This document shows, piece by piece, positions 5,365 to 29,203 of a stretch of 64,000 nucleotides of DNA; position 1 is the first letter of the stretch, and every line of letters starts with the position of its first letter. This stretch comes from Oscillospiraceae bacterium (GTDB taxonomy: Bacteria > Bacillota > Clostridia > Oscillospirales > Ruminococcaceae). Both the position numbers and the translations under genes were made by a program. The stretch lies in contig JAAVYW010000060.1 of NCBI GenBank assembly GCA_022791315.1, forward strand, positions 12,290 through 76,289, written 5' to 3'. The notes under the pieces are model-generated. The model was not told the origin of the DNA and made no database searches. It was given only the letters and a program-made list of their open reading frames with translations.

Positions 5365-7485
5365 ATGCTGGAACAAACACAGATGGAGCAGGAGCAGGTT
5401 CATCTTGCCCAGACCCAGGCAGAAATCGACAAACAGCTCTCCGCCTACGGGGAAGAGGCCGAGCTGTTGCGGCAGACCACCCGGGAGCAGCGCAAGTACA
5501 TCTGGGATAACCGGATTGACCTGGATTCCAAGGAGAGCTATTTTGAGGAAGCCGTGGCCGCCAAGTACACCGAATCCTTTGGCGAGACTTTTAATGAGTG
5601 GGTGCGCCTCAAACGGATGAAACAGAGCCCCTATTTTGCCCGTATCGATTTTGCCGAGCCGGGCGACCCGGCCGAGCAGGTCTATATCGGCTCCGGCTCC
5701 CTGGTGGACGACCGGAGCTTTGATGTCTATATCTATGACTGGCGTTCCCCCATCGCAGGCATGTACTATGATTTCGAGCTGGGCAGCGCCTCTTACCAGT
5801 GCGAGGCCGGGGAAATCAGCGGGGAAATCACCCTAAAACGGCAGTACCGCATAGAGCACGGCGTAATGAAGGAGGCATTTGACAGCTCTGTCACAGTGTT
5901 AGACGAGATTTTGCAGAGCATCCTCTCTGCCGACGCCCAGGAAAAGATGCGCCCCATTGTCACCACCATCCAGCGGGAGCAGAACACCCTCATCCGGGAG
6001 GAGGACTCTGAAATCCTCGTCATCCAGGGGGCAGCAGGCTCTGGCAAAACCTCTGTGGCGCTCCACCGGGTGGCCTACCTGCTCTATCGCCGCCGCAATA
6101 AGCTCAATGAGAGCAACATCCTCATCCTCTCCCCCAATGATTATTTCAGCGAGTACATCTCCGGCGTCCTGCCCGAGCTGGGGGAGAAAAATGTGCGCCA
6201 GCTCACCATGCCCCAGCTGATTTCCGCCGCCACCCCCCGCCAGGAGCAGGAGGAGCTCCCCGCCTATCTGGAGCAGGCCTATACGATTGGATACACCCCC
6301 GCCCAGCTGGAGGAAACCCGGCAAAAAACCTCTGCCCCTTTCACCCGTTTTTTGGAGGAACGCATTGCCCGCCTGACCCAGGAAGGCCCCTCCTTTACCG
6401 ACTTGACAGACGGCGAAGGCACTGTCATCCTCTCCGGGCAGGAGATGCAGGAGATTTTTTGCAGCTGCGTCCCCTCTTTCACCATGGTGCAGCGCCTGGA
6501 AAAAGTCTCCACCTACTTTGTCTCCCGTGCGGAAACCTATAAACAGCGCCGTCTCAGCGTCCTGCGCCAGCGCCTTCTGGCTAAAAACGGGGACAACTTC
6601 TACTTAGACAGCGCCGACCTGGACCGGGATGTGCGCCTGGCTTGGATGCAGCAGTACCATCAGCTCCGGGAAACCTTCTTTTCCTCTATCGCGCTGGACG
6701 AAGCAGCCCTCTATCAAGAGCTCCTCTCCGATTTCTGGGAGCCCAAGACCGGCGAAGCCTTTGCAAAGGCCTATGCCTCCGGCCGCCTCTCCTATCCCGA
6801 CGCCGCGGCCTTTGCCTATCTACGCCTGCTGCTGGGCCTCTGCAAGCCGGACGGGGACATCCTCCACGTGGTGGTGGACGAAGCCCAGGACTACAATTTC
6901 CTCCACTACCGGATGTTGGGCCGCTGGTTTTATAATGCCCGTTTCACCATCCTGGGGGACCCCTCCCAAATCCTCTCCCCCGCCCTCTTTGACAGCCGGG
7001 AGGGCTTCCAGTACATGCTGGACGCCTTCTCCCCCCGCCGCAGCGGCCTGAAAGCCCTGGAAAAACGCTACCGCTCCACCTGGGAAATCAACACCTTTGC
7101 CGATCGGATTTTAGGCCTCCAAGGGGAAAAAGTAGAGCGCCACGGCCCCACTCCCCAGGTGATAACGGTGTGGGATACGGCGGATTACGTCAAGCAGGCC
7201 TTCTCCCAGGCAGACGAGCAGGGCTGTGCCGTCATTGTAAAAACAGGCCGCCAGGCCACTGCCCTCCACCAGCAGCTGCGGGGCATTCCCGGCATCACCT
7301 GCATAGACGGCACTGCCCCCGTCTCCCTGGGCAAGCGCGTGATCCTTCCCGCCTACCTGGCGAAAGGCCTGGAATTTGACCAAGTAATCGTACTCACCCA
7401 AGGCTTTACTTCTCAGGACAATAACCTATTCTATGTCTGCTGCACCCGCGCCCTGCACCAGCTCACCATAGTCACCGAGGAATAA
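5365..7485 (+). CDS. helD: HelD-type UvrD-like helicase (RNA polymerase recycling ATPase)
   Basis: 706 aa with an N-terminal coiled coil, YFARIDF and IYDWRSPIA motifs, Walker A GAAGSGKTS, and a C-terminal UvrD_C-like end. Confidence 0.7.
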   Translation: MLEQTQMEQEQVHLAQTQAEIDKQLSAYGEEAELLRQTTREQRKYIWDNRIDLDSKESYFEEAVAAKYTESFGETFNEWVRLKRMKQSPYFARIDFAEPGDPAEQVYIGSGSLVDDRSFDVYIYDWRSPIAGMYYDFELGSASYQCEAGEISGEITLKRQYRIEHGVMKEAFDSSVTVLDEILQSILSADAQEKMRPIVTTIQREQNTLIREEDSEILVIQGAAGSGKTSVALHRVAYLLYRRRNKLNESNILILSPNDYFSEYISGVLPELGEKNVRQLTMPQLISAATPRQEQEELPAYLEQAYTIGYTPAQLEETRQKTSAPFTRFLEERIARLTQEGPSFTDLTDGEGTVILSGQEMQEIFCSCVPSFTMVQRLEKVSTYFVSRAETYKQRRLSVLRQRLLAKNGDNFYLDSADLDRDVRLAWMQQYHQLRETFFSSIALDEAALYQELLSDFWEPKTGEAFAKAYASGRLSYPDAAAFAYLRLLLGLCKPDGDILHVVVDEAQDYNFLHYRMLGRWFYNARFTILGDPSQILSPALFDSREGFQYMLDAFSPRRSGLKALEKRYRSTWEINTFADRILGLQGEKVERHGPTPQVITVWDTADYVKQAFSQADEQGCAVIVKTGRQATALHQQLRGIPGITCIDGTAPVSLGKRVILPAYLAKGLEFDQVIVLTQGFTSQDNNLFYVCCTRALHQLTIVTEE

Positions 7486-7500
7486 GCCCAATAACGTCCC

Positions 7501-7533
7501 AAAAGGCTCCCTTTTTAAAAAGGGAGCCTTTTT
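7501..7533. terminator. Bidirectional terminator after helD
   Basis: Perfect palindrome AAAAGGCTCCCTTTTT/AAAAAGGGAGCCTTTT. Confidence 0.75.
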
Positions 7534-7601
7534 ATAGTATAGTCTCTAAGTTTAATTCCCATTTATAATAATAATTATATATATTTTATAAACTTTTTTA
7601 A

Positions 7602-7635
7602 AAATACCTCCTACCCTGTGGGATAGGAGGTATTT
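7602..7635 (+). promoter_or_regulatory. Terminator-like hairpin that contains the SD of the XRE gene
   Basis: 11-bp stem AAATACCTCCT / AGGAGGTATTT. The 3' arm holds AGGAGG and runs into TTTTT just before the ATG at 7638. Confidence 0.5.
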
Positions 7636-7637
7636 TT

Positions 7638-8183
7638 ATGACAGTACTAATTACAACCAGAAAAAACATTGTCGCATTACGCAAAGCAAAAGGCCTGTCC
7701 CAAGAACAGCTGGCAGAGTATTCCAATATCAGTTCCCCGCTCCTGCATCATCTTGAAACTGGCTGTCAAAACACTACAATTGACACACTCCGCCGTATAG
7801 CAATTGCCCTGGGTGTCTCTCCGTTGGCCCTCGGCATCCTGTCACTTTCCGACAGTGAAATCCGGTCCGTCATTCAAAAGCCATCGTATACGCCGCCAGA
7901 GGTACGGTCCTTTCAAATCGGGGAAAATATTGCCCTGCTCCGGAAAGCCAAAGGATTCTCCCAGAGAAAGCTAGCGGAACTATCCCATGTGAGCGTTGCC
8001 CGCCTGCGGGACATCGAACACGGCTGCGCAAATGTTTCGCTAGCGCTTTTAGGGCGCATCGCCAAAGGCCTGGAAATCTCGCTGCCGGCCCTCGGCTCTC
8101 TGGGCCTATCTGACGAACAAGTATTGAGCCTGGTTTACCAGGCCAGAGCTGTGCTTGAAAATGGGGCCGCTCAAACAGTTTAA
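7638..8183 (+). CDS. XRE-family regulator with two tandem HTH domains
   Basis: Two internally repeated HTH_3-like units (LRKAKGLSQEQLAE... and LRKAKGFSQRKLAE...), each followed by an LG.L.LSD.E segment. Confidence 0.7.
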   Translation: MTVLITTRKNIVALRKAKGLSQEQLAEYSNISSPLLHHLETGCQNTTIDTLRRIAIALGVSPLALGILSLSDSEIRSVIQKPSYTPPEVRSFQIGENIALLRKAKGFSQRKLAELSHVSVARLRDIEHGCANVSLALLGRIAKGLEISLPALGSLGLSDEQVLSLVYQARAVLENGAAQTV

Positions 8184-8198
8184 CGCACAAACTCCAGA

Positions 8199-8227
8199 TT
8201 GACAAAAAACGACATTTCCTGTAAAAT
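8199..8227 (+). promoter_or_regulatory. SigA-type promoter, family A copy 1 mRNA
   Basis: TTGACA-17 nt-TAAAAT. Confidence 0.6.
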
Positions 8228-8309
8228 AAAGCTGTCCCCTTTTTGGGGGACAAGGCACTGCAAAAACGGTAGGCGGTTGGTCGATAACCTCCGAAAGGAG
8301 GTGAGACTT

Positions 8310-8396
8310 ATGCGGATTACTTTCCATATTGGGCCTTTCAAGGTTACAATCACGATTAGTAAACCGGCAGACAAAAACCGCCACTCGGCCAAGTGA
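8310..8396 (+). CDS. 28-aa peptide MRITFHIGPFKVTITISKPADKNRHSAK (family A, copy 1)
   Basis: GGAGG SD 8 nt upstream, itself paired in a CCTCC-GAAA-GGAGG hairpin. The stop codon lies inside the terminator stem. The peptide is identical in copy 2 despite 2 synonymous changes. Confidence 0.45.
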   Translation: MRITFHIGPFKVTITISKPADKNRHSAK

Positions 8397-8405
8397 CGGT
8401 TTTTA
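8372..8405. terminator. Bidirectional terminator shared by the family A copy 1 RNAs
   Basis: AAAAACCGCCAC-loop-GTGACGGTTTTT, with an A-run upstream and a T-run downstream. Confidence 0.65.
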
Positions 8406-8457
8406 AGATAAATTAAAAATCCACTACCAGGCCAACCGCTTATCGCAGTGCCTTTTC
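8372..8457 (-). ncRNA. Predicted convergent small RNA of about 85 nt (family A, copy 1)
   Basis: Bounded by the minus-strand TTGACA-17-TATAAT promoter and the shared terminator. Only an 11-codon ORF without SD is present. Confidence 0.45.
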
Positions 8458-8463
8458 ATCCTT

Positions 8464-8492
8464 ATTATACCCATATTCGCTTCATATGTCAA
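8464..8492 (-). promoter_or_regulatory. SigA-type promoter for the copy 1 small RNA
   Basis: On the minus strand, a perfect TTGACA-17 nt-TATAAT. Confidence 0.65.
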
Positions 8493-8513
8493 TCCCAAAT
8501 ACTATATCGGGAA

Positions 8514-8542
8514 TTGACAAATCCTGACGAAACAGGTAAAAT
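8514..8542 (+). promoter_or_regulatory. SigA-type promoter, family A copy 2 mRNA
   Basis: TTGACA-17 nt-TAAAAT. The spacer is unrelated to copy 1. Confidence 0.6.
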
Positions 8543-8606
8543 AAAGGCAAGGCACTGCAAAAACGGTAGGCGGTTGGTCGATATCCTCCGAAAGGAGGTG
8601 AGACTT

Positions 8607-8693
8607 ATGCGGATTACTTTCCATATTGGGCCTTTCAAGGTCACAATCACGATTAGTAAACCGGCAGACAAAAACCGCCACTCGGCTAAGTGA
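8607..8693 (+). CDS. 28-aa peptide, identical to copy 1 (family A, copy 2)
   Basis: Same SD-masking hairpin and terminator-embedded stop as copy 1. The only differences are GTT/GTC and GCC/GCT, both synonymous. Confidence 0.45.
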   Translation: MRITFHIGPFKVTITISKPADKNRHSAK

Positions 8694-8703
8694 CGGTTTT
8701 TTG
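8669..8703. terminator. Bidirectional terminator, family A copy 2
   Basis: AAAAACCGCCAC-loop-GTGACGGTTTTTT. Confidence 0.65.
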
Positions 8704-8753
8704 AAATAATAAAAACGTAACTTAAGGCCAACCGCTTATCGCAGTGCCTTTTC
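8669..8753 (-). ncRNA. Predicted convergent small RNA (family A, copy 2)
   Basis: Bounded by the minus-strand promoter at 8760-8788 and the shared terminator. Confidence 0.45.
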
Positions 8754-8759
8754 ATTTTT

Positions 8760-8788
8760 ATTATACCCACACCCGCCTGGTTTGTCAA
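8760..8788 (-). promoter_or_regulatory. SigA-type promoter for the copy 2 small RNA
   Basis: On the minus strand, TTGACA-17 nt-TATAAT. The spacer is unrelated to copy 1. Confidence 0.65.
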
Positions 8789-8882
8789 GCGATAAAATTA
8801 GCCTCACAGCATCAAAAGGCCGGCCTCTTGCGAGACCGGCCTTCAACGCCAACTAGTTCAGCTTCTTCGATAAGAAGTTATC

Positions 8883-10256
8883 TTATTTGGAAGCCTTCTT
8901 GGAAGCAACCAGACCAGCAGCAGCCAGGGACACAACAGCCATAGCTACAGCCAGAGAAATAGCATTGGAGGAACCAGTGCCGGGGTTGTCCTCAATGGGG
9001 TTACCATCTTCGTCAACCAGTTTGTCGTCGTCCTCTACGGGCTCGTCAATCAGGTCATCGTCTTCGATGGGCTCGTCGGTGTCGCCAACAGCCTCGAGGT
9101 CAAGAGCACCCTCAGTAATCAGATATCTGGTCATGGGGCCTTCGAACACTACGTCACCATAGGTGTAGTTGTCAGTGTCCTTAACTTCAACCTCTTCAAG
9201 GGTCATGTCGTCATCATGCATAAGATATACATGAAGATCATCTTTGTTCCAGTCATACTCTACAGAGAAAGTACCAACAACATCCGGGCGATGAGTCACA
9301 AAGTTGAACACCTGATACTCGAAATCGACATCAGTCAGTTGATCTTCCCAGGGACCCTGGTCGCCGTTATAAGCAACATTGATGTGCTTGCCATTGTTCA
9401 GAGCAGTAAATGCTTTCTTATTCAGAGTCAGAGTAGTGTAACCATCAAAATAGGTGGAAGCATTCTCCTCATTGTAAGAAGTCATCTTGCCATTGTCCAT
9501 TACGAAGGTAGCAGTCTCAGAGTTGCCCAGGTTTCTAGCCAAGAAACGAACGATAGAAGAAGGAAGCACAGGGTTACCGCCCAAATCTACATCAAAGTTC
9601 GTCTCATCGTAATTTCTCATAGCATCGAAGTTATTCACAACCTCATCATACAGGTCATCGATGTCCTCGTTGCTATAACCAGCAGAAATGGTTCCCGAAT
9701 CTTTTACAGTTTTCCCCTTCAGGCCGCTTCTGTTGGCAACATCCTTCTTGTCAACACCGTAGTTAATTACCACACCCTTATAATCAGTGGCATCAAGGTT
9801 CGTGGCTTTCAGGGTGAATTTAACATCAAAGGACAAATAAGTTTTGCTACCCGCAGTGTACCATCTAAAGGTTTCCTTGTCGATTTCATCCTTGGTAACC
9901 TCAGCAGGACCCTTTACAGAAATCTTCGGAACAAAATTCCAGTGGTTGTAGGTGATAACATTGCCCTTTGCGTCCTTCTCATTGGCAACAGCAACTACAT
10001 GGTATCTGTAGTTCATAGATTTTCCTGCAGGAATCTCCCATTCCTGGTCGGCTCCATCCAGCTCCAGAACATCAATACCAGTCGTACCAACGGCCTTATC
10101 CAAGGTAACATAGTTATCTGCTCCGATTTTCATTGTTGACAGACTGGCATGAGTTGCATTAGTATCTTTAATCTCATCTTTCATGGCAGCGAAAGATGTC
10201 GCAGCAATGCCCATAGTCATAGCCGCAGCCAGTACTAAAGAAAGTACTTTTTTCAT
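8883..10256 (-). CDS. Secreted cell-wall-anchored surface protein (NPGTG sorting signal)
   Basis: Signal peptide MKKVLSLVLAAAMTMGIAATSFA, acidic D/E-rich stalk, then NPGTG, a hydrophobic segment and a KKASK tail. GC and codon usage are clearly lower than in the neighbours. Confidence 0.65.
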   Translation of the reverse strand: MKKVLSLVLAAAMTMGIAATSFAAMKDEIKDTNATHASLSTMKIGADNYVTLDKAVGTTGIDVLELDGADQEWEIPAGKSMNYRYHVVAVANEKDAKGNVITYNHWNFVPKISVKGPAEVTKDEIDKETFRWYTAGSKTYLSFDVKFTLKATNLDATDYKGVVINYGVDKKDVANRSGLKGKTVKDSGTISAGYSNEDIDDLYDEVVNNFDAMRNYDETNFDVDLGGNPVLPSSIVRFLARNLGNSETATFVMDNGKMTSYNEENASTYFDGYTTLTLNKKAFTALNNGKHINVAYNGDQGPWEDQLTDVDFEYQVFNFVTHRPDVVGTFSVEYDWNKDDLHVYLMHDDDMTLEEVEVKDTDNYTYGDVVFEGPMTRYLITEGALDLEAVGDTDEPIEDDDLIDEPVEDDDKLVDEDGNPIEDNPGTGSSNAISLAVAMAVVSLAAAGLVASKKASK

Positions 10257-10334
10257 TTTACATTCCTCCTATAAAATTTCTTTGGTTCAAGAGAGCGGGG
10301 CGTTGGCGAAACCCCATCCCTCAAGTGCAAACTT

Positions 10335-10363
10335 ACTATAACACATCCTTCCCGGAAAATCAA
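10335..10363 (-). promoter_or_regulatory. Promoter of the surface protein gene
   Basis: On the minus strand, TTGATT-17 nt-TATAGT, about 80 nt upstream of AGGAGGA-ATG. Confidence 0.5.
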
Positions 10364-10640
10364 GCCTTTTTTGCAAATTTTTGTTTCTTTTTTGTAACTT
10401 ATTTTCCGCAGTTGTTACTTTTTTGCACTTTCATCCCCTAAACGTCCCAGCTCCGGTAATTATTGGAGTGTCTTAGTTTTTATTTTAGAAAATTTTTATT
10501 CATGATTGTGACTGGTTTGTTACTAATCGCTTTGGCTCCTCGCTAATGTAGGCCCAGGCCTTCTCCTCTCTCTATTTTTCCATTCCCCCTTTACCTCCCC
10601 CCTCTTTTCCCCTATAATAAAACTGTATTGGAGGGATAAG

Positions 10641-29127: not shown

Positions 29128-29203
29128 TGGTGGACAATAACGGACTCGAACCGCTGACCCTTCGCACGTCAAGCGAATGCTCTACCAGCTGAGCTAATTG
29201 TCC
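29128..29203 (-). tRNA. tRNA-Val (anticodon GAC), CCA encoded
   Basis: Hand-folded cloverleaf: acceptor GGACAAT/ATTGTCC, D stem GCTC/GAGC, anticodon stem TTCGC/GCGAA with loop TTGACGT, T arm AGCGG-TTCGAGT-CCGTT, 76 nt. Confidence 0.9.

Follow-up and report, generated by a model that had tools for sequence, protein, structure and literature searches.

A tandem pair of type I toxin-antitoxin-like units encoding a short peptide predicted to form a beta-hairpin in an Oscillospiraceae genome

Two compact units lie side by side at 8199-8492 and 8514-8788 of the window (the whole 64,000-nucleotide stretch of Oscillospiraceae DNA analysed here), where a first-pass annotation of the same DNA had placed them, and they share a single layout as it described. 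The units align at 89% identity and are nearly identical from the leader box to the -10 box of the sRNA promoter. Both contain the elements read in that annotation, namely a plus-strand promoter, a hairpin that buries the Shine-Dalgarno (SD) sequence, an ATG 8 nt later, a 28-codon open reading frame (ORF) whose TGA sits in a stem (the 3' arm of the central hairpin), and a perfect promoter on the opposite strand. On alignment the ORFs differ at only two codons (GTT/GTC and GCC/GCT), both synonymous. The promoter spacers had been called unrelated between copies; those on the minus strand are in fact partly similar. Promoter-like sites number 14 in the region, against 2.3 expected from shuffled sequences. 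The features are as follows.

8199..8227, plus strand: toxin-mRNA promoter of unit 1, TTGACA-17-TAAAAT, 11/12 consensus match
8234..8251, plus strand: 5'-terminal hairpin GTCCCC-TTTTT-GGGGGAC, in unit 1 only
8252..8282, plus strand: leader box of unit 1 (AAGGCACTGC..GGTAGGCGGTTGGTC), the 5' arm of helix P1 according to folds and family covariation
8288..8301, plus strand: SD-sequestering hairpin of unit 1, CCTCC-GAAA-GGAGG
8310..8396, plus strand: ORF 1, 28 codons and TGA, MRITFHIGPFKVTITISKPADKNRHSAK, with a coding signature and a beta-hairpin prediction
8373..8404, both strands: central hairpin of unit 1, AAAAACCGCCAC-loop-GTGACGGTTTTT
8430..8454, plus strand: P1 3' arm of unit 1 (GGCCAACCGCTTATCGCAGTGCCTT), then TTTTC, the putative end of toxin mRNA 1
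8371..8457, minus strand: predicted antitoxin sRNA 1, about 87 nt, with ends inferred from its promoter and terminator
8464..8492, minus strand: sRNA promoter of unit 1, TTGACA-17-TATAAT, 12/12
8514..8542, plus strand: toxin-mRNA promoter of unit 2, TTGACA-17-TAAAAT, 11/12
8549..8579, plus strand: leader box of unit 2, the P1 5' arm
8585..8598, plus strand: SD-sequestering hairpin of unit 2, CCTCC-GAAA-GGAGG
8607..8693, plus strand: ORF 2, encoding a peptide identical to that of ORF 1 (MRITFHIGPFKVTITISKPADKNRHSAK)
8670..8702, both strands: central hairpin of unit 2, AAAAACCGCCAC-loop-GTGACGGTTTTT
8726..8750, plus strand: P1 3' arm of unit 2, then a U tract
8668..8753, minus strand: predicted antitoxin sRNA 2, about 86 nt (fold z = -4.4)
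8760..8788, minus strand: sRNA promoter of unit 2, TTGACA-17-TATAAT, 12/12

The central hairpin is read from both strands. In unit 1, its minus strand is the sRNA terminator and contains a G.U pair, while its plus strand is an SL3-like stem-loop with a C.A mismatch, holding the last seven codons and the TGA and followed by U residues. The central-hairpin loops of the two units differ by one base, the synonymous GCC/GCT change. The P1 3' arm of unit 1 is complementary to the 5' hairpin of the sRNA.

The search for related units that the first-pass annotation had proposed returned at least 118 homologous genome loci and at least 120 viral contigs, which excludes a chance origin of the units. The family is abundant in dominant gut Clostridia of humans and animals (Faecalibacterium, Gemmiger, Oscillospiraceae, Ruminococcaceae and Lachnospiraceae) and on contigs of their phages. 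Carriers among cultured strains include Anaerotruncus colihominis DSM 17241, Gemmiger formicilis and Vescimonas fastidiosa MM35. Units occur in many copies per genome, and their edges are inverted repeats. Searches of Pfam, NCBIfam, PHROGs, PADLOC and PDB sequences with the peptide gave no meaningful match, while a large protein database queried with a doubled and extended sequence gave only nine unnamed, mis-called longer ORFs. The window's own units returned only noise and no BsrG match from Rfam at E<=10, and the whole window contains one tRNA and nothing else at Rfam gathering scores. [quoted passage not shown] The family is thus unannotated, being without a Pfam, NCBIfam, Rfam or literature record, and the peptide appears from these searches to be new, with no known family matched.

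Comparison across the family indicates that the ORF is coding and under amino-acid-level selection in a conserved amphipathic core, as had been suspected from the two window copies. The coding test used 128 complete loci picked by a pattern confined to the sRNA. The first-pass annotation had raised the prospect of homologues that lose the ORF and keep the RNA; 95 of these 128 loci retain an intact short ORF of the beta type, while the ORF is hydrophobic in about 9 and absent from about 21-24. Entropy at codon position 2 is close to 0 bits in the Thr and hydrophobic columns, versus 1.6-1.97 bits at position 3. ORF length varies from 20 to 31 residues, with the frame kept in all variants and indels in frame, and both the SD and the SD-to-start distance are conserved. 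When 86 distinct units were instead selected by the leader alone, 82 had a short ORF. A convergent promoter matching 11-12 of 12 positions was present in 68 of the 70 leader-selected units whose sRNA box has at most 3 mismatches, and the leader-selected intact units listed without such a box have this promoter too. Approximately 17-20% of sRNA copies have lost the ORF or carry a damaged one while the sRNA is retained; orphan sRNAs and damaged ORFs of this kind fit a toxin that is sometimes purged. The damaged ORF of locus L066 reads ATG-TGA.

The peptide is predicted to form an amphipathic, Thr-rich beta-hairpin of about 16 residues followed by a basic tail, according to an AlphaFold model of a 39-residue construct that includes 11 non-native N-terminal residues and draws on only 10 sequences. 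Its best 19-residue Kyte-Doolittle mean is 0.45, compared with 0.45-1.3 for beta-type peptides generally and 1.8-2.5 for helical toxins. Because the window peptide has no hydrophobic stretch of transmembrane length, the usual toxic mechanism cannot be assumed. The earlier description of a beta-like product, lacking a transmembrane-length run and unlike known type I toxins, therefore holds. The basic tail that it also mentioned is present, but its NRH..K residues appear to be shaped largely by the hairpin stem and not by selection on the peptide.

An sRNA gene opposing the toxin mRNA is predicted from a convergent 12/12 promoter, a 5' hairpin and a terminator. Across the family, the sRNA promoter matches 12 of 12 positions in 139 of 176 copies and 11 of 12 in another 28, while random windows score at most 9; the toxin promoter is more variable and weaker. 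Of 81 distinct leaders, 68 have a paired SD, with stem sequences that differ, and folding also pairs the SD in the window units, where it constitutes a built-in translation block. The folded SD stem has 5 bp with P1 in place and approximately 11 bp with a free leader. RNAduplex comparisons in 89 units revealed no site at which the sRNA pairs consistently with the translation start. Pairing of the two RNAs at their 5' ends, as in par, was rejected: the sites are inconsistent, and the matches reflect the likeness of the two hairpins.

The first-pass annotation had the toxin mRNA ending at the shared central terminator. Our data suggest instead that transcription probably reads through the central hairpin to the distal hairpin, since the leader and the distal segment (complement of the sRNA 5' hairpin) form a covarying helix, P1. 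If the mRNA does continue past the central hairpin, its overlap with the sRNA would be about 87 nt and not about 35. Folding the long-form mRNAs of the window gives z = -6.8 and -8.5 and places three stem-loops inside a closing P1. The mean energy of P1 duplexes is -46.9 kcal/mol with native partners and -38.7 kcal/mol (sd 0.28) with swapped ones. In counts that draw on related sequences, so that their p-value is no true probability, 84% of P1 cells are paired natively versus 68% after swapping, single positions show up to five pair types, and G.U wobbles (56) exceed A.C mismatches (14). This excess of G.U over A.C favours pairing in the mRNA sense. Part of the covariation could stem from gene conversion between the inverted repeats. 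In most family members, the 8 plus-strand nucleotides after the central hairpin hold a mean of 3.8 T, versus 5.4 after the distal hairpin. In the window, five U directly follow the central hairpin on the plus strand, and part or most of the window mRNA may end there and never form P1. An alternative pairing of the leader GGCGGUU with AACCGCC in the 5' arm of the central hairpin, as an anti-terminator, was set aside, the distal P1 being far better supported. The Rfam BsrG alignment draws this pair; both partners are invariant, so covariation cannot test it.

The closest architectural parallel to these units is found by way of their siblings, which have a common leader, central hairpin and homologous sRNA hairpin and encode MVTYEGLF-type peptides. 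One sibling peptide scores 24.5 bits against Pfam Hol_Tox (PF16935; cutoff 23.3), and one sibling unit, L197, aligns to Rfam BsrG (RF01412) over the leader, SD hairpin and ORF with 36.3 bits (E=4e-7), below the gathering score of 55 bits. The window units, unlike L197, give no score against RF01412 at E<=10. Members of the TxpA family are proteins annotated as holin-like toxins (PMC2887945). The hydrophobic peptides in the same scaffold match TxpA/Hol_Tox (PF16935, which includes E. faecalis EF3263), whereas the window peptide and its beta-type relatives have neither a hydrophobic helix nor a PF16935 match. The units also resemble txpA/RatA in having an antisense RNA over the 3' end and in occurring in tandem or multiple copies (PMC2887945).

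Similarity to bsrG/SR4 of the B. subtilis prophage SPbeta extends to the RNA structure. In the probed bsrG mRNA, P1 joins the 5' and 3' ends, the SD lies in SL1 and the stop codon in SL3; the SR4 terminator loop contacts L3, and SR4 binding extends the SD helix from 4 to 8 bp (PMC3834814). The units described here likewise have convergent genes with the predicted sRNA over the toxin-mRNA 3' end, an mRNA closed by a long 5'-3' helix (predicted by folding, with covariation in support), an SD in a stem-loop, a stop codon in a stem-loop complementary to the sRNA terminator, and an SD stem predicted to lengthen upon leader release. They differ in being more compact (an sRNA of about 87 nt versus 183 nt), in having a U tract directly after P1 without a separate terminator, and in encoding a 28-residue product of the beta-hairpin type in place of the 38-residue BsrG membrane helix.

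More distant systems share fewer of these traits. The par locus (fst/RNA II, pAD1) has convergent promoters, a bidirectional terminator and an SD-sequestering stem-loop (PMC7472228); the present units resemble it in their convergent promoters, a hairpin common to both strands and an SD-sequestering stem-loop, and a loop-loop contact at the complementary hairpins is plausible. However, their repeats are inverted, unlike the direct DRa/DRb repeats of par, which create 5' complementarity over the translation start, so the 5' boxes of sRNA and mRNA have the same sense and the 5' ends are alike rather than complementary. The PXXXG motif and hydrophobic helix of Fst are absent from the window peptide, which has no Pfam or NCBIfam match. 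Type I systems of C. difficile (CD2517.1/RCd8 and related modules) are similarly found in Clostridia, are often carried by phages or prophages and code for short peptides that end in Lys-rich tails (PMC6563280). Their toxins differ in having a hydrophobic N-terminal helix and share no detected sequence similarity with the present peptide. SymE and RalR are folded nucleases, several-fold longer than 28 residues, and show no similarity to the window peptide; 16 residues of hairpin and a basic tail are too little for such an enzyme. What links them to the window peptide is that they, too, are not membrane helices: among described type I toxins, only these two, both cytosolic, fall outside that class (PMC8309996).

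The combination of these features makes it probable that both units are type I toxin-antitoxin-like modules in the bsrG/SR4-txpA/RatA architectural class, each with a product presumed to be a harmful beta-hairpin; the first-pass annotation had also read the architecture as type I-like, and the family-level evidence supports it. In the proposed mechanism, a toxin mRNA of about 210-225 nt would be transcribed from the near-consensus plus-strand promoter and would carry, in order, the leader box, the GNRA-capped SD hairpin, the 28-codon ORF, the central hairpin and a distal segment that would fold back on the leader to form the P1 helix of about 25 bp, next to a U tract. The opposing minus-strand sRNA of about 87 nt, in which an A/U linker joins a 5' hairpin to a terminator, would be fully complementary to the mRNA 3' end. 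By analogy with bsrG/SR4, the sRNA terminator loop would first form a kissing contact with the central-hairpin loop, after which the duplex would extend to the P1 3' arm. The GGUC/GGCC end of the freed leader would pair beside the SD, lengthening that stem from about 5 to about 11 bp and blocking translation. Again by analogy, the long mRNA/sRNA duplex would be a substrate for RNase III, which may lead to degradation of the mRNA. The product would be a cationic, Thr-rich, amphipathic beta-hairpin, presumed harmful once made.

Alternatively, the peptide may be a cellular small protein and not a toxin, perhaps one that binds a partner by beta-strand addition or sits at a membrane surface, with the sRNA keeping its level low. 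All characterised membrane type I toxins have a hydrophobic helix (PMC8309996) that this peptide lacks, and some candidates of the same logic, such as YhzE-2, proved non-toxic on testing (PMC2887945). However, the peptide fills the exact slot taken by TxpA/BsrG-type toxins in sibling loci, it is doubly repressed by an SD hairpin and an antisense RNA with a consensus promoter, and the sRNA persists in the 17-20% of copies whose ORF is lost or damaged, so a cellular role seems unlikely to us. We regard as similarly unlikely a par/Fst-like arrangement in which both RNAs end at the central hairpin and pair only through a terminator stem-loop of about 35 nt, the likeness of the leader and the sRNA 5' hairpin then being due to shared ancestry, a protein partner in common or protection of the 5' end. 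The five-U plus-strand tail at the window's central hairpin would suit such an arrangement, as would the stability of the minimal 35-bp mRNA/sRNA overlap (already -66 kcal/mol) and the precedent of par/Fst itself, with its convergent promoters, bidirectional terminator and SD-sequestering stem-loop (PMC7472228). Yet the repeats are inverted, leaving no direct repeats for 5' complementarity, the tail after the central hairpin is U-poor in most members (3.8 vs 5.4 T in 8 nt), and the leader and distal arm covary with a G.U to A.C ratio of 56:14, which same-sense likeness alone does not predict.

Two further explanations give the peptide no function at all. In one, the ORF would encode a mere regulatory leader peptide, and ribosomes translating into the hairpin would decide between termination and read-through; the position of the stop and last seven codons inside a hairpin with U residues after it is what such a device would look like. 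This attenuator reading was rejected in the absence of any same-strand downstream gene, here or in homologues, and a spacer ORF would have no need of a conserved amphipathic core under amino-acid-level selection; we consider it very improbable. In the other, still less credible, the units would be non-coding structured RNAs or palindromic repeat elements with an accidental ORF, consistent with the very highly structured RNA (z = -6.8 to -8.5) and with inverted-repeat-bounded units present in many copies per genome. The three-base periodicity (position 2 invariant, position 3 saturated), the frame-preserving indels and the conserved SD and spacing to the start codon argue against it.

If the units are type I toxin-antitoxin-like modules, beta-type peptides could represent a new class of type I toxin that acts by a non-helical mode and replaces the TxpA/BsrG-type helical toxins in a conserved scaffold, a proposal that we make tentatively and with somewhat more doubt than conviction. 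Candidate modes include oligomeric beta pores, membrane assemblies and beta-strand addition to an essential protein. With the exception of the nucleases SymE and RalR, all characterised type I toxins are membrane alpha-helices (PMC8309996). This family provides a counter-example that can be tested: its scaffold, which elsewhere carries classic toxins, here encodes a very short peptide of predicted beta-hairpin form; the peptide is new, while the bsrG-type scaffold of leader, SD hairpin, central hairpin and sRNA is known. If the proposal is correct, a type I RNA chassis can exchange one toxin cargo for another. The units would also provide a compact natural RNA switch of the bsrG type, with covariation dense enough for direct mutant design, and their near-perfect consensus sRNA promoters and small RNA switch could serve as parts for Clostridia engineering. 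Recognition of the family could explain assembly breaks and aid the annotation of gut genomes.

The low-GC patch and the neighbouring double-HTH XRE regulator in the first-pass annotation are both real, but the regulator is incidental: it was rejected as a functional partner, not being a conserved neighbour (one weak match among about 160 loci). The 5'-terminal hairpin of unit 1 (8234..8251) is likely an mRNA 5' stabiliser. It is terminator-like when read on the minus strand, and in many homologues its place is taken by an unrelated hairpin.

The two units at 8199-8492 and 8514-8788 lie in tandem and belong to a family that is widespread, unannotated and, in its predicted RNA plan, bsrG/SR4-like. 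The first-pass annotation had called their architecture type I toxin-antitoxin-like, a reading that is supported and sharpened by a coding ORF, a consensus sRNA promoter and a predicted bsrG-like fold. The units are 89% identical in pairwise alignment, with almost no differences between the leader and the -10 box of the minus strand, and a reading of 7900-9100 together with an ORF listing bears out the two-unit layout described earlier:

Both units, plus strand: toxin-mRNA promoter, TTGACA-17-TAAAAT
Both units, plus strand: SD hairpin, CCTCC-GAAA-GGAGG, covering the SD
Both units, plus strand: ATG, 8 nt 3' of the SD
8310-8396 and 8607-8693, plus strand: 28-codon ORF encoding MRITFHIGPFKVTITISKPADKNRHSAK
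Both units, plus strand: TGA stop, within the 3' arm of the central hairpin
8430-8454 and 8726-8750, plus strand: 3' arm of helix P1, complement of the sRNA 5' hairpin, predicted to pair with the leader
Both units, minus strand, convergent: sRNA promoter, perfect TTGACA-17-TATAAT
Upstream of the units: double-HTH XRE gene
8883-10256, minus strand, downstream of the units: convergent ORF of 457 residues

A promoter scan of the region returned 14 promoter-like sites versus 2.3 expected, and no further copy of the unit occurs elsewhere in the window. As had been noted, the ORF copies differ at two sites only, both synonymous, which alignment confirmed. One of these (GCC/GCT, 8391 versus 8688) sits in the central hairpin loop, the predicted first sRNA contact site, so that each sRNA is perfect on its own mRNA and has one mismatch or wobble on the other. 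Unit 1, not unit 2, also carries an 18-nt insertion (8234-8251) forming a GTCCCC-TTTTT-GGGGGAC hairpin right after the toxin promoter, a position occupied by an unrelated hairpin in many homologues. On the minus strand this hairpin scores as a terminator and could stop antisense read-through before it reaches the XRE gene; read on the plus strand, it would form a cap at the 5' end of the mRNA.

Conservation across the family argues that the ORF is a real gene. Among 128 copies selected by their sRNA (those cut by contig ends left out), 95 preserve an ORF of this type intact behind an SD, about nine have a short hydrophobic ORF in its place and some 21-24 have none; frameshifts with the RNA retained, which would have pointed to a pure RNA element, are thus not the pattern of the family as a whole. 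The peptides are 20-31 residues long, every indel is in frame, and their alignment gives the consensus (MP)-I-T-L-T-F-H-I, a turn of 2-3 residues, [FYW]-T-V-T-I-[RK]-V and K-S-x-N-R-H-[SP]-[AG]-[KR]. In the Thr and hydrophobic columns, entropy is approximately 0 bits at codon position 2 and 1.6-1.97 bits at position 3; in one Thr column the first two positions have 0 bits and the third, at 1.83 bits, is free to vary. This coding signature shows protein-level selection on the peptide core. The tail behaves differently: the N-R-H codons (AAC CGC CAC) supply the central hairpin with its 5' arm and for that reason vary at none of their three positions, and alternation of H-S-x-K with H-P-x-R tracks a U-A to C-G exchange at one stem pair (58 versus 34 sequences). 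Read in the plus sense, the central hairpin has a C.A mismatch at the A of TGA; read in the minus sense, it has a G.U pair there. The basic tail, dictated for the most part by the hairpin stem, is therefore mainly a side effect of RNA structure.

About 17-20% of sRNA copies are orphans or face damaged ORFs. Damage includes an ATG-TGA nonsense change (locus L066), SD loss (L046) and 5'-truncated toxin remnants (L028, L049), while stand-alone sRNA genes, as at 4240-4362 of L001 (Vescimonas fastidiosa pMM35_01) and in L009, L022, L028, L042, L049 and L057, retain promoter, 5' hairpin and terminator, with the toxin half absent or reduced to a 3' remnant. This minority looks like the loss of a harmful gene.

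The mRNA leader (AAGGCACTGC..GGCGGTTGGTC) and the sRNA 5' end (AAGGCACTGCGATAAGCGGTTGGCC) are of the same sense and hence alike, not complementary, unlike the 5' ends of par/Fst; par-like 5' pairing of sRNA and mRNA was rejected, with no consistent pairing across 89 units. The likeness would be explained if the toxin mRNA runs beyond the central hairpin and its distal arm pairs with the leader. Long-form mRNAs fold (z-scores -6.8 and -8.5) into a helix of about 25 bp, P1, enclosing the SD hairpin, an ORF hairpin and the stop-bearing central hairpin. Over 147 distinct leader/arm pairs, the P1 duplex averages -46.9 kcal/mol in native combinations versus -38.7 (sd 0.28) when partners are swapped. 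By position, 84% of P1 cells are paired versus 68% (swapped maximum 71% in 200 trials), with up to five pair types at single positions (e.g., GC 30, AT 25, GT 14, TA 9, CG 4). Gene conversion could also keep leader and arm matched by sequence identity, yet there are 56 G.U wobbles against 14 A.C mismatches (counts over related sequences, kinship ignored), an excess predicted by plus-sense RNA pairing and not by such identity. The tail past the distal arm of P1 is consistently U-rich across the family. Past the central hairpin, most members have a plus-sense tail poor in U, but the window has five U at this place, so a short mRNA ending there may coexist here with the long form.

The predicted minus-strand sRNA (about 87 nt; fold z = -4.4) begins with a 5' hairpin and ends in a strong terminator, and the A/U-rich linker between them is not the same in the two window copies. 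The outer stem of its 5' hairpin covaries (native -12.47 kcal/mol versus -11.33, sd 0.09, partner-swapped). Over 176 copies its promoter shows the full 12/12 consensus match in 139 and falls one short (11/12) in 28, against a maximum of 9 in random windows, whereas the toxin promoter is far more variable, at 6 to 12 of 12; a strong antitoxin promoter beside a variable toxin promoter is usual in type I systems. Reciprocally, when 86 distinct viral units were chosen by leader alone, 82 contained a short ORF; an sRNA box (at most three mismatches) was present in 70, and 68 of these had a convergent 11-12/12 promoter. Intact units lacking the box, mostly TxpA-like, had such a promoter too, with a more diverged sRNA hairpin.

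The same plan is known from bsrG/SR4, which has been probed experimentally, whereas here it is predicted from folds and covariation. In bsrG mRNA, P1 pairs nt 1-35 with nt 232-262, SL1 contains the SD and SL3 the stop codon; the SR4 terminator loop makes its initial contact with loop 3, after which the helix extends to the P1 3' arm, freeing the 5' arm to single strand and lengthening the SD helix from 4 to 8 bp, and SR4 promotes toxin mRNA decay via RNase III (PMC3834814). In the window units the predicted SD stem has 5 bp with P1 formed and about 11 bp, ending a few bases short of the AUG, with the leader free, because GGUC at the leader end pairs with GACU just 5' of the start codon; most family leaders are predicted to form the same extension. 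This switch and the bsrG/SR4 plan together suggest two-fold control, by translation block and duplex-directed decay. Each window sRNA is predicted to pair with the other unit's mRNA almost as well as with its own, so the two copies should cross-regulate.

Sibling loci place hydrophobic peptides (e.g., MVTYEGLFAFCLVLIGLAALLSKQK, MVTYSDLIQIGILIVGILGLILQITKRK, MMTFSELFQFIIMITSVITLVYKVTKDHYDKK) inside the same scaffold of leader box (ACGG[CT]AGGCGGTT), SD hairpin and central hairpin, with an sRNA hairpin that is the same or diverged but homologous. One such peptide exceeds the Hol_Tox (PF16935) gathering score (24.5 versus 23.3 bits) and several others fall slightly under it; the TxpA family members are those annotated as holin-like toxins, and TxpA-like sequences are present in Clostridiales (Fozo et al., PMC2887945). 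The Rfam BsrG model aligns to the leader box, SD hairpin and ORF start of sibling L197:6726-6847 (E=4e-7), at 36 bits against a gathering score of 55. By these matches the scaffold is distantly related to the TxpA/BsrG group, and the window peptide is a different cargo within that scaffold.

That cargo is putatively a toxin with a beta-hairpin fold. Its beta-like character and lack of a transmembrane-length hydrophobic run, both suggested in the first-pass annotation, hold. The best 19-residue hydropathy is 0.45-1.3 for peptides of the window's type versus 1.8-2.5 for the hydrophobic siblings, Fst, TisB and IbsC, and hydrophobic moments at 170 degrees are 0.43-0.52 versus 0.05-0.16 for helical toxins. 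AlphaFold2 was given an alignment of 10 sequences and a construct of 39 residues, the first 11 of them non-native and read from an upstream in-frame TTG. It predicted two strands, one spanning peptide residues 1-7 and the other 10-16 (pLDDT ~82-85), flanking a Gly-Pro turn, with a disordered tail and a mean pLDDT of 67.7, which is a lead rather than proof. The peptides carry a net charge of +3 to +7. The type I toxins named in reviews are all alpha-helical membrane toxins, apart from the nucleases SymE and RalR (PMC8309996). The toxin type would, if true, be unprecedented, and a bsrG/SR4-like system with such a cargo is directly testable.

The units had no match in Rfam, nor the peptide in Pfam, NCBIfam, PHROGs, PADLOC or PDB sequences, and literature searches found no description of the gene-pair family. 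The proposed sequence search for relatives did return homologues in genomes and viral contigs: BLAST placed them at six sites in Vescimonas fastidiosa pMM35_01, none annotated, and in two human-faecal phage-labelled contigs. An sRNA-side-only pattern (CTGCGAYAAGCGGTT-N20-50-AACCGYCAC) matched at least 118 genome loci and 42 viral contigs, and an mRNA-leader-only pattern at least 120 viral contigs. Almost all of the genome loci listed for the sRNA pattern carry record titles from gut Clostridia, among them Oscillospiraceae, Ruminococcaceae, Lachnospiraceae, Faecalibacterium, Gemmiger and Anaerotruncus colihominis. A large protein database held nine relatives only, all unnamed over-extended ORF calls. 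Many members here lie on contigs classed as viral; type I systems of C. difficile are likewise reported to be often phage- or prophage-borne (PMC6563280). Typical units also occur on contigs binned to Bacteroidota (L008, L013 and L020, labelled Bacteroidaceae; L053, Barnesiella; L082, Alloprevotella), more likely mis-binned Clostridia or phage contigs than real transfer.

The unit pair lies, as described earlier, in a low-GC stretch beside the double-HTH XRE gene, and the flanks are ordinary chromosomal genes. The island (7400-10600; GC 0.37-0.45 versus ~0.6 around it) holds the XRE gene, both units and the convergent ORF, whose product matched nothing in Pfam or PADLOC; its C-terminal region is acidic and repeat-like, with a hydrophobic anchor at the very end. 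XRE was rejected as a conserved neighbour (one weak match in ~160 loci); the Vescimonas unit is flanked by jag and a TatD gene. In 12 of 164 loci the units form tandem arrays, some of them with mixed peptide subtypes: MRITLHIG-type units stand beside MPITLTFH-type at L004 1297-2265, L068 3182-3696 and L072 2617-3009, which suggests duplication then divergence, or recombination between units. In three loci with an identical XRE protein (L164-L166), public assemblies all break at or just past the tandem-unit start, probably a repeat-caused assembly artefact. Just upstream, 5365-7485 encodes a 706-residue UvrD-like helicase with weak, generic similarity to GajB-type defence models (best E=3e-14 over ~50 residues) and no partner genes seen. 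A tRNA at 29131-29203 on the minus strand is the sole Rfam family at gathering score in the whole window.
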